From NCBI GenBank assembly GCA_964589775.1, contig CAZPUN010000017.1, positions 60,001 through 92,000 of the forward strand: DNA of 32,000 nt, read 5' to 3'. This stretch comes from an uncultured archaeon. Lineage in GTDB: Archaea > Asgardarchaeota > Thorarchaeia > Thorarchaeales > CAZPUN01. This document shows positions 1 to 7,912 of the stretch, piece after piece. A model generated the notes under the pieces. The model was not told the origin of the DNA. It worked only from the letters and a program-made list of their open reading frames with translations, and ran no database searches. The position numbers and the translations under genes are program-made. The number at the start of each line of letters is the position of its first letter. Within the stretch, counting starts at the first letter, position 1.

Positions 1-61
1 CGCGACGAACACCAACGCCAAGGACTTCAGCAGCTAATCTTTTTTGTACATCCAACTTCAA
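1..61 (-). CDS. rpl19e: 50S ribosomal protein L19e, N-terminal part (runs off the window edge)
   Basis: Not in the ORF track. Manual translation from TTG at 61: MKLDVQKRLAAEVLGVGVRR. GGAGG SD at 70-74. Canonical position after L32e. Confidence 0.9.
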   Translation of the reverse strand, partial: MKLDVQKRLAAEVLGVGVRR

Positions 62-76
62 TTATAATTCCTCCAA

Positions 77-478
77 TTAGAGTTCTTCGCTTTCTTCAAT
101 TAGTTCGCCGGGATTTACAATACGAATCATTAATGATTCTGCACGATCAATAATTTCCATACGCTTCTTACGACCAACAGAGGAGGCAATACGCGCTACA
201 TCACGGTCGGCATCTAATTTTTCTAGATCCTTAACATTGTAAACTATATGCTCCCGCAATCCAGATGGATGAAGATATCTAACTGCACGAGGATTTCTAT
301 AACCAACGCCGGGTTGCTTCTTATAACCGGCGCGCTTCATTCGAACCTTATTATCAATACCTCGTGGTTTTCTCCAGCTAGACTTTACACGGACTAAGCG
401 GTCGCTTTCATGTCTGATGAATTTAGGACGCTTCTTTGCAATTTTCTTACGCAACTTAAATAATCGTTTTTCAGTCAT
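77..478 (-). CDS. rpl32e: 50S ribosomal protein L32e
   Basis: KKRPKFIRHES...WRKPRGIDNKVR...GYRNP...LHPSG motifs; spc operon position. Confidence 0.97.
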   Translation of the reverse strand: MTEKRLFKLRKKIAKKRPKFIRHESDRLVRVKSSWRKPRGIDNKVRMKRAGYKKQPGVGYRNPRAVRYLHPSGLREHIVYNVKDLEKLDADRDVARIASSVGRKKRMEIIDRAESLMIRIVNPGELIEESEEL

Positions 479-5443: not shown

Positions 5444-5905
5444 TTAAATCTCCTCTACAGCAATTTCAACATGTGTTAGATAGTTATAATATGGAGATGA
5501 TCGGCCAAAAGCACGTGGAATATTCTTTTTAATAACACGTGCACGATGTGCAGCAGCATGAATTATTTTCAATCGGTCAATATCAAGGCCTTTATTATCG
5601 GCATTAGCCTCTACATTCTTTAAGACTTTTAAGATAGCCTTTGATGCTCTAACTGGATAACCTCCAGTATGCCATTTTTTAAGCCCTGCATGATGACCTC
5701 GCTTCTTATGATGACGCTTATAGGGAACCATAGCGTTCATCGCGATTACTTCTTCGAGATAATCAACTGCCTTATCAAACATCATACCTTTGATAGTATT
5801 GCAAATCTCTCTTGCCCACTTGGGCGATATATTTAGATCCCGACCACTTGCGATTGCTGTCTTGTCAGGATCAAGACCAATTATGGAATATTTCATATGC
5901 GGCAT
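5444..5905 (-). CDS. rpl22: 50S ribosomal protein L22 (uL22)
   Basis: ISPKWAREIC, GGYPVRAS, NVEANADNKGLD, PRAFGRSSP, THVEIAVEE. Confidence 0.97.
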   Translation of the reverse strand: MPHMKYSIIGLDPDKTAIASGRDLNISPKWAREICNTIKGMMFDKAVDYLEEVIAMNAMVPYKRHHKKRGHHAGLKKWHTGGYPVRASKAILKVLKNVEANADNKGLDIDRLKIIHAAAHRARVIKKNIPRAFGRSSPYYNYLTHVEIAVEEI

Positions 5906-6100
5906 CTAAATTCCTCACTTCGATTTTACTGCTTATCCACAATTTTGAGATTATTGTAGATGCATACGCAAGAGGTCAAGCACGCTGAGCTAACCGCCCC
6001 ATTTAGCTTGGCCATGGATTTTAATGCGCGAGCTTAGAATGATTCAAACCATTTAGCCAAACTAAAATTTTGGAACGGCAGCAATTATATTTTTGACCAT
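5906..6100 (-). ncRNA. Putative structured cis-regulatory 5' leader RNA of the rpl22 operon
   Basis: Nested helices found by eye on the minus strand: 6098-6093/5979-5974, 6082-6072/6000-5989 and 6066-6054/6014-6002, plus a separate hairpin at 5964-5930. Several G-U pairs form only on the minus strand. Confidence 0.6.
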
Positions 6101-6120
6101 GGAACAATCAAAAGCTAGAA

Positions 6121-6134
6121 TATATAAGGATTTC
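6121..6134 (-). promoter_or_regulatory. Archaeal BRE/TATA promoter for the rpl22 operon
   Basis: Minus strand GAAATC-CTTATATA. Standard spacing predicts a transcription start near 6098-6100. Confidence 0.65.
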
Positions 6135-6150
6135 TTTAAATACACAAAAA

Positions 6151-6537
6151 TTAAGGCACATGACCAAACTCATCCATAAAGGATTTGAATGCATTTGACA
6201 TATACTTCTCAATTAAATTTACACCTTTCTGAGTAAGAACAACCTTAGCAAAAATTGGACCTATTGAAATAATATGTAAATACTTTTTGTTTGCCAAACT
6301 TTTAAGGATCCTTATAACAATATCCGTAAACTCTTGCTCAGAAACTTTTAAAAACCCTGAAGCATCTTGAAATTCTTTTGTACGTCGTAATATATCTTTA
6401 ATTGATGCAAGATAGCGAATATTTGTAGAATACGGATTTGAATAAAGCCATAACAATACAATTAATTCGCTAACTATTAAATTAATTTGTGGATATTTCT
6501 CAAGAGTCTTGCGGGCAACTAATTCTACAGCAGGCAT
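6151..6537 (-). CDS. Hypothetical winged-helix protein
   Basis: C-terminal helix-wing pattern ILKSLANKKYLHI...KVVLTQKG (MarR/PadR-like wing). Start ATG 6537 has a GGGG SD. Confidence 0.6.
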   Translation of the reverse strand: MPAVELVARKTLEKYPQINLIVSELIVLLWLYSNPYSTNIRYLASIKDILRRTKEFQDASGFLKVSEQEFTDIVIRILKSLANKKYLHIISIGPIFAKVVLTQKGVNLIEKYMSNAFKSFMDEFGHVP

Positions 6538-6551
6538 AATACATCCCCAGA

Positions 6552-7286
6552 TCACACCAAAGATATCCAATTCACTCTAGGTTCATATAGAACCCCAGAA
6601 GCAATTAAACCATTTATTACCTTTTGAATTTCTTCATCAGAATATCCATATTTATTGAACTCTAATATAAGTTCAGATGTTTTAATAGGCATATTATGTG
6701 CTTCTAGAAATTCAATAATTGCACGTTCTAAGGATTTCATAGATTTTTTAGATTTTACGGGCGTAGTCTCCTTGATTCCAGGAATTTCAGATTCGGAAAC
6801 TAATTGAATTTCCCATGGCTTGGGAAAAATAATAATTCCATCTTGAGATAACTTTTCTAAAGAATCGGTAACCCATTGCCAGTCTAATTTATATTTTTCA
6901 GCAAGTGCTCTAAACTTATCAAGTGTAATAGGATTCTTAGCAAATTGCACTAAAAGTGAGAATAATGTCCGAGATTTGCCACCGGAAATATAAGTTACTT
7001 TATCATCGCTAATACTTTCAGTTTCTTGCATGTCTAAATATTCATATAATTTAACAATGCTTTCACGACTTGCCTCAACAGCCATTATGAATTCGTCACT
7101 ATTCTTTTTTGCATTATATTGTTTTACTAATTTGGAAGCTTCTTCTATGGACTCTACAAGCTGAGATTCTGCGGGATTTATTTTTATAATATGATTACAA
7201 TATGTACAACGCCTTGTCTTTTGTCTTACTGGAGCGTAAAGAAAAGCGCCACATTTCGGGCATTTAAATACTAAAAACTTTTGCAT
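6552..7286 (-). CDS. DUF1922-like Zn-ribbon protein with two C-terminal winged-helix repeats
   Basis: CPKCG...QKTRRCTYC at the N-terminus. Repeats end LEKLSQDGIIIFPKPWEIQLV and INGLIASGVLYEPRVNWISLV. Start ATG 7286 has a GAGG SD (alternative start 7307). Confidence 0.75.
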   Translation of the reverse strand: MQKFLVFKCPKCGAFLYAPVRQKTRRCTYCNHIIKINPAESQLVESIEEASKLVKQYNAKKNSDEFIMAVEASRESIVKLYEYLDMQETESISDDKVTYISGGKSRTLFSLLVQFAKNPITLDKFRALAEKYKLDWQWVTDSLEKLSQDGIIIFPKPWEIQLVSESEIPGIKETTPVKSKKSMKSLERAIIEFLEAHNMPIKTSELILEFNKYGYSDEEIQKVINGLIASGVLYEPRVNWISLV

Positions 7287-7303
7287 TTTGAGATTCCTCG
7301 ATA

Positions 7304-7912
7304 TCATAATTCAATTAATTTTTCATTTAAACGCTTTTTAAGGCATCGTTCTATAAATTGATAGAGATCCGTTTGAAGGGATGAAGGAATTATACTAAGT
7401 TTATTAGTTAATTCATCAACAATTTCATCAGCAATAATTGATGTCGAACGGGATTTTAAGGGCTCTAAGGCATTTTGAATCTTACTTATAGAGATATTAT
7501 ATGAAATACGAGTATTAATAATACAATAAGAAACATCATCAGGCGGAATGAAGTAAGGAAAATGTTGTAGATCATGCAATACAATAATATTAAGTGATTC
7601 ACAAATTGTTTTGACATACCAATCAAAAGAAGACTCTTTTACATTAAAGCGAGATATAAATTCGATTTTTGTAAATGGATTAGGATATGTCCAAGGATGC
7701 CTAGAAATAATATATAATATCGATGCATAAAAAGGATATGGCTCCCGAGGTTCTGTTGCTATGAGATAATACGCACGGATTAGATTCAATGCAGGCTCAA
7801 TATATTTATCATCAACACTATTTTTTTCATAAAATTCTTTTGCTTCTTTTAATACATTAACAAGATATGCATCATCAAATGGGGGACTCTTATGAGCATG
7901 CACTTTTTTCAA
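7304..7912 (-). CDS. Hypothetical protein, possible TFIIB/cyclin-fold repeat
   Basis: YASILYIISRH...PFTKIEFISRFNVKESSFDWYVKTICESLNI resembles the TFB repeat AAALYIA...RTQREVA..AGV.E.TVR.RYKEL...L. TTG start. Confidence 0.5.
   Translation of the reverse strand: MKKVHAHKSPPFDDAYLVNVLKEAKEFYEKNSVDDKYIEPALNLIRAYYLIATEPREPYPFYASILYIISRHPWTYPNPFTKIEFISRFNVKESSFDWYVKTICESLNIIVLHDLQHFPYFIPPDDVSYCIINTRISYNISISKIQNALEPLKSRSTSIIADEIVDELTNKLSIIPSSLQTDLYQFIERCLKKRLNEKLIEL

Follow-up and report, generated by a model that had tools for sequence, protein, structure and literature searches.

The S8-bound spc operator and the L4-bound S10 leader of E. coli control the bacterial counterparts of the string of ribosomal protein (r-protein) genes considered here, which correspond to the distal part of S10 together with spc. 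In E. coli, S8 binds at the start of L5 and not ahead of L22. In bacteria, S8 represses the spc operon (PMC4176348). For archaea, four candidate r-leaders have been put forward, two of them for S15, one for eL15, and one for L4 (Eckert and Weinberg 2020, PMC7247131); the S15 leaders are known from Halobacteria and Methanomicrobia (PMC7247131). The initial annotation of the present locus stated that no leader was known for an archaeal L22-headed operon, and this agrees with the published collection, in which neither such a leader nor any Asgard lineage is named (PMC7247131). Like the leader described below, the collected r-leaders are structured 5' UTRs of archaeal r-protein operons, proposed to act as autoregulatory protein-binding sites (PMC7247131). 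They differ from it in operon, lineage, and structure, and their Rfam models miss both the window (the whole 32-kb stretch of DNA that was analysed) and its relatives. A core cluster running from uL22 to uL15 is described in a survey of Asgard r-protein clusters, where a search by terms returns no mention of a leader (PMC10833476).

The window is part of contig 17 of a metagenome-assembled genome of 2.16 Mb, with 35% GC and 97% completeness. Among the 87 species genomes of the Thorarchaeia, this genome is alone in its own family, the other 86 being Thorarchaeaceae; it represents a deep-branching, AT-rich lineage of the class.

A structured RNA in the 5' UTR of the rpl22 operon

The operon opens with rpl22 and continues with S3, L29, Rpp29 (the RNase P protein), S17, L14, L24, S4e, L5, S14, S8, L6, and L32e. 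Many primary rRNA binders are thus encoded in it, S8 among them. Its other intergenic gaps are tiny, as had been pointed out, with neighbouring genes abutting or overlapping; the non-coding gap ahead of rpl22 spans 245 nt (6150-5906, minus strand) and holds a promoter block, a nested rod of 125 nt, a second hairpin, and a partly paired Shine-Dalgarno site (Table 1). Upstream the gap is bordered by a 139-aa ORF (6570-6151) that has no Pfam match. In all relatives from the Thorarchaeia the rpl22 promoter adjoins, on its upstream side, a small Pfam-less ORF preceded by a DUF1922/winged-helix gene (6151-7307, minus strand, in the window), and the C-terminal residues of the small ORF are conserved in the class. 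The usual L3-L4-L23-L2-S19 string sits away from the rpl22 promoter in Thorarchaeia.

Table 1. Positions of the leader elements and of the double changes in P3
Feature	Position	Strand	Basis or remark
Promoter block, BRE-like purine run and TATA box	6119-6144	minus	sequence; conservation in four haplotypes
Predicted transcription start, foot of P1	6097-6100	minus	TATA spacing, about 26 nt from box centre
Rod (P1, P2, P3, inner 4-bp helix, 31-nt apical region)	5974-6098	minus	MFE, shuffles, haplotypes
P1	6098-6093 with 5979-5974	minus	RNAfold
P2	6082-6071 with 6001-5989	minus	RNAfold; bulged U at 5993, 3 G-U
P3, 12 bp	6066-6055 with 6013-6002	minus	RNAfold; 2 G-U
Inner 4-bp helix	6052-6049 with 6017-6014	minus	RNAfold
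Apical region: UUCU 6039-6036, GCUCGCG heptamer 6033-6027	6018-6048	minus	conservation
Possible anti-SD segment	5968-5973, pairing with 5913-5918	minus	MFE
Hairpin 2, 12 bp, 2-3-nt bulge, 9-nt loop, 1 G-U	5930-5964	minus	z -4.12
Shine-Dalgarno region GAAGUGAGG	5913-5921	minus	7 nt before ATG
rpl22 (uL22), first gene of the operon	5444-5905	minus	Pfam PF00237, E 4e-25
Double change, P3	alignment columns 39-95		window G-C to A-U, haplotype L142
Double change, P3	alignment columns 40-94		window U-G to A-U, haplotypes L136 and L138
Double change, P3	alignment columns 44-90		window G-C to A-U, haplotype L138

The BRE/TATA box named in the initial annotation falls inside a block that is identical in the four leader haplotypes described below, while the 20 nt between this block and the rod are variable. 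The TATA box lies at about 6127-6120, preceded by a purine-rich stretch, and a second TATA-like sequence, TTTAAAG, is found at 6140-6134. The predicted start of transcription follows from a TATA centre near 6123. The leader contains no stretch of five or more T that could serve as a terminator. A TATA-like box is likewise lacking from the interval between rod and rpl22 ATG, in the window as in the GC-rich relatives. Thus rpl22 must be transcribed through the rod, and the alternative originally offered, an independent noncoding RNA, becomes the less likely one. The leader element is single-copy in the genome. The 3' end of the genome's 16S rRNA is the standard anti-Shine-Dalgarno sequence, and the Shine-Dalgarno region is partly paired in most family members (mean unpaired probability about 0.46-0.5).

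Folding of the minus strand with RNAfold reproduces the helices proposed in the initial annotation, P1, P2, P3, the inner helix, and hairpin 2, to within 1-2 nt. The energies lie well below those of shuffled sequences. The whole 195-nt leader folds at -54.4 kcal/mol (z -3.14, with 1 of 200 shuffles equally good) and the rod alone at -41.0 kcal/mol (z -3.86, with none of 200 equally good); hairpin 2 gives z -4.12. The opposite strand is weaker, with z -1.16 for the whole leader and -1.87 for the rod, because the fold includes six G-U pairs.

A search of 5.8 billion proteins with L22, made for closer relatives of this genome, returned no L22 at 70%-90% identity. Contigs encoding the same L22, or one at least 90% identical, supplied three more leader haplotypes, so that the comparison within the lineage covers four closely related haplotypes in total. 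The 52 proposed pairs are 99% paired across the four, against at most 45.7% when the partners are slid. The 38 rod pairs are kept, with three double changes, all in P3, and three single compatible ones. The one-sided changes that preserve pairing comprise two in P2 of L142 (columns 21-110, U-A to U-G, and 22-109, G-U to A-U) and one in the inner 4-bp helix of L136. An alternative pairing, 6084-6080 with 5987-5983, is disrupted by the P2 change in L142, and P2 as originally drawn therefore stands. Loops, bulges, and the apical region take up nearly all remaining substitutions and every insertion or deletion. The inner 4-bp helix is wholly lost in one haplotype, and the apex, GCUCGCGCA, is unchanged in all four. 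The stem of hairpin 2 is constant while its bulge and loop differ. Since P1, most of P2, the hairpin 2 stem, and the six pairs of the anti-SD helix are invariant among the four haplotypes, these are helices that covariation cannot probe.

These results bear on two quite different explanations of the locus. The first is that the fold arises by chance, or that it reflects a palindrome at the level of DNA, such as a transcription-factor site. AT-rich intergenic DNA does fold readily, and the two arms of the rod form an imperfect inverted repeat. A z score of -3.9 with none of 200 shuffles as good, a fold made strand-asymmetric by six G-U pairs, the compensatory changes, and the position of the element downstream of the promoter leave this explanation with a negligible share of the probability. 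The original argument that the G-U pairs point to RNA rather than to a DNA palindrome is borne out by the strand asymmetry together with the compensatory changes. The second explanation is that a 12-codon upstream ORF (6100-6062, minus strand) with a leaderless start controls the operon. Its ATG coincides exactly with the predicted start site, and position 1 is A, G, or T among the haplotypes, each giving a possible start codon. Against this, a 1-nt deletion in L142 shifts the frame and alters both the sequence and the length of the peptide, the Thorarchaeaceae leaders contain no equivalent, and the constraint on the sequence tracks base pairing rather than codons; control by such an ORF appears highly improbable. 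The element is a genuine, selected, minus-strand structured RNA in the 5' UTR of the rpl22-to-spc operon mRNA.

The leader matches no existing Rfam family. At the gathering threshold Rfam 15 gives no match in the whole window, matches in the region 5700-6400 are at chance level (E>3), and the corresponding loci of 18 relatives also give none. K-turn, H/ACA, and bulge-helix-bulge motifs are absent by inspection. The 3' strand of P2 (6000-5985, minus strand) resembles the 5' end of a tRNA, with an acceptor strand and the beginning of a D-arm; the equivalent stretch of the Thorarchaeaceae lacks this likeness, and ARAGORN finds no tRNA gene in the window.

Relation to the leader of the Thorarchaeaceae

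In 40 of the 40 relatives examined, rpl22 lies behind a gap of 236-261 nt with a TTTAAAT box and the same upstream gene. The layout is also common to all 40: a promoter in corresponding position, a rod, a variable hairpin, and GAAGUGAGG. The TTTAAAT box stands at a distance from the rod equivalent to that of the window's promoter. The Thorarchaeaceae leaders align well, and their rod has 30 pairs, with 94.6% of alignment cells paired as against at most 46.6% with the partners slid; double changes occur in 15 of the 30 pairs, a level that none of 500 shuffles matches. The covariation originally suggested as a mark of a selected structure is thus seen twice, as compensatory changes in close relatives and in the covarying Thorarchaeaceae counterpart. 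The internal loop of the Thorarchaeaceae rod holds about 20 invariant unpaired nt, with CAGU on the 5' side and A-N-A-C-G..UGCC on the 3' side, and the rod has two inner helices, P4 and P5. Between the rod and the start codon every Thorarchaeaceae member has a hairpin of unrelated sequence, and the GAAGUGAGG ribosome-binding region is nearly invariant in 29 Thorarchaeaceae leaders. A CCGG/CCGG pseudoknot joining the rod to the Shine-Dalgarno region in this family was considered and rejected, inspection giving no consistent covariation.

A covariance model of the Thorarchaeaceae rod, R1, was built from 28 family members. In 81 of 86 Thorarchaeaceae genomes it detects a single copy, always directly before rpl22, with scores of 79-130 bits (E 1e-18 to 1e-32). 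No real copy is found in 122 sampled genomes of other Asgard families; two marginal matches in one such family are spurious, as they fall within a large coding gene. In the other Asgard classes rpl22 either follows straight after S19 or has its own promoter and leader, and the Thorarchaeia motif was not found in those leaders. One of them (locus L163 of genome G123, from another Asgard family) carries three tandem 33-nt units about 60-190 nt before rpl22, behind a TATA box of its own and with a sequence unrelated to the Thorarchaeia leader.

The question whether the rod of the window is the same RNA as that of the Thorarchaeaceae is answered no by statistics and probably yes by anatomy. With its filters off, R1 gives no match at E<=10 in the 32-kb window; on a 261-nt target containing the window's leader it scores 3.9 bits (E 0.34), which is not significant. 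Profiles built from the Thorarchaeaceae find no match in the window with nhmmer, and BLAST of the window's leader against the 40 relatives returns only noise. The anatomy is shared in several respects. Both leaders have the same upstream gene, gap length, and promoter-to-rod geometry, and in both a rod of about 120 nt is followed by a variable hairpin and then by the GAAGUGAGG ribosome-binding site. As in the Thorarchaeaceae, the window's leader is located between a wHTH-type gene and rpl22, and its TATA box precedes the ATG by about 215 nt.

Two stretches of sequence are also held in common. The first is the apical UUCU..GCUCGCG (6039-6027 in the window). GCUCGCG has 71 copies on the two strands of the genome, so that 0.003 would be expected per 195 nt; preceded by UUCU it has seven copies, the other six of which lie in long ORFs, and the chance expectation falls to 0.0003 per leader. 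The second is the 3' strand of P2, UGGGGCGGUU, which with its partner matches the G-U-rich helix of the Thorarchaeaceae pair for pair; in both versions this strand reads UGGRGYGGUU. The window differs from the Thorarchaeaceae in having neither the invariant internal loop nor the two inner helices, and in having the 12-bp P3 in their place. The correspondence of the helices is ambiguous, in that MAFFT and Infernal favour an equivalence of P3 with the long helix and the 3'-strand motif favours P2. The conserved core is small because the internal loop is missing from the window and the inner 4-bp helix is lost in one of its haplotypes. Taken together, these likenesses suggest that the window's rod is probably a strongly diverged version of a Thorarchaeia-wide leader. 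On this view, the window adds a divergent, lineage-specific variant to that leader.

Candidate ligands and mode of action

It has been proposed, in the initial annotation, that the leader is autoregulatory and bound by a product of the operon. The part of this proposal that calls for a selected structure in the 5' UTR of rpl22 has held up. No rRNA mimic to go with it has been found in the window. When the leaders are compared with the 23S, 16S, and 5S rRNAs of the window's genome and of one Thorarchaeaceae genome, shared words occur at chance level, and the comparison with the genome's own three rRNAs gives no convincing mimic in the window's leader. The sequence CUCGCG of 23S rRNA was considered as the model for the apex and rejected, being one strand of a helix in 23S and standing in a different context.

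Some irregularities of rRNA genes also came to light. In genome G000 the 23S rRNA gene (contig C23:99368-103215, loci L144 and L145) is 3848 nt long, and across model positions 1423-2973 it exceeds the model by about 880 nt, an excess that points to sizeable insertions, either expansion segments or an intron. The 16S gene of G000 lies about 77 kb from the 23S on the same contig, and its 5S is on another contig. In another genome (locus L172, G021) the 5S candidate, whose score falls short of the Rfam cut-off, measures 152 nt; its helix III/loop C arm is enlarged by an insert of about 32 nt.

S8 is one protein to consider. In helix 21 of 16S rRNA its site consists of a G-C and a U-A pair with a bulge of two bases, the last of them A (PMC4176348), the two strands reading GU and AUAC. 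The same G-U / A-N-A-C arrangement recurs in the Thorarchaeaceae, in the invariant internal loop that is the best candidate for a protein site in that family; there the counterpart of base 641 may be U, G, or A, and one G is added. A scan for the S8 site finds both 16S helix 21 and the Thorarchaeaceae loop, plus 5-15 other places per rRNA, and shows that an S8-like internal loop is absent from the window's leader. S8 may thus offer a weak lead, and for the Thorarchaeaceae leader only.

The apex is the other feature that could be recognized. Its heptamer is complementary to CGCGAGC, a universal sequence of 5S rRNA helix IV/loop D, and in the window's genome the complementarity extends to 9 bp. 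It exists in both families; variant apexes need a shift of register in order to pair. This pairing was set aside, since the 5S motif is universal and is tied up in a stable helix and tetraloop, and since 16S and 23S rRNA contain complementary heptamers too. It is nonetheless conceivable, as a long shot, that the functional core of the leader is the shared apical UUCU..GCUCGCG loop, and that this loop would recognize an assembly component other than a classical repressor, for example free 5S rRNA, by pairing with its complementary 9 nt, or L5 or L18, which bind 5S rRNA and are encoded further downstream. If this were true, reading by the apical loop would couple the synthesis of about 20 r-proteins to the availability of the 5S rRNP in Asgard archaea.

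The same complementarity enters into a further explanation, that a small RNA is cut from the leader and acts in trans through its GC-rich palindromic apical loop, or dimerizes. Closed by P1, the rod forms a domain of its own; its apex is complementary to 9 nt of the genome's own 5S helix IV/loop D, and the CGCG palindrome is present in the apex of all variants. A processed RNA is distinctly unlikely in view of the evidence on the other side. Inspection reveals neither a bulge-helix-bulge nor any other recognizable processing motif, and the operon mRNA has no site complementary to the apex. The 5S segment is buried as well as universal, and heptamers complementary by chance occur in 16S and 23S rRNA. 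The element, moreover, is single-copy and strictly linked to rpl22.

The structure might also function without any ligand, protecting the long polycistronic mRNA from decay that depends on its 5' end, setting the efficiency of translation or the pausing of transcription, or acting as an RNA thermometer. In keeping with such a role, the rod begins at the predicted 5' end, which is typical of stabilizing 5' stem-loops; its helices are kept despite drift or deletion in much of the inner sequence; and no rRNA mimic was found. What speaks against it is the conservation of particular nucleotides: a GC-rich heptamer that is invariant in a genome of 35% GC and common to two families that otherwise differ, and the roughly 20 invariant unpaired nt of the Thorarchaeaceae internal loop. 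The invariance of the apical heptamer across two families argues for specific recognition rather than mere stability, and a ligand-independent structure, though possible, seems unlikely.

The reading preferred here is that of an autoregulatory r-protein leader with a putative binding site for a protein of the operon, to which a probability of about one half can be assigned. Under this reading, transcription from the conserved BRE/TATA promoter would begin at about 6097-6100, and the first 125 nt would fold into a long rod with UUCU..GCUCGCG presented at its apex. The second hairpin would form next, and the ribosome-binding site could pair with the stretch immediately 3' of the rod. An rRNA-binding protein encoded in the operon, when in excess over rRNA, would then bind the rod. 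Binding could stabilize a fold in which the ribosome-binding site is hidden, or it could otherwise block initiation or destabilize the mRNA. In either event the outcome would be reduced synthesis of the operon's proteins.

The leader is a candidate for a new RNA family in Rfam. The small core common to its two versions narrows the place where a ligand would bind, and a class-wide, single-copy leader ahead of an operon for about 20 r-proteins provides a concrete and testable entry point.
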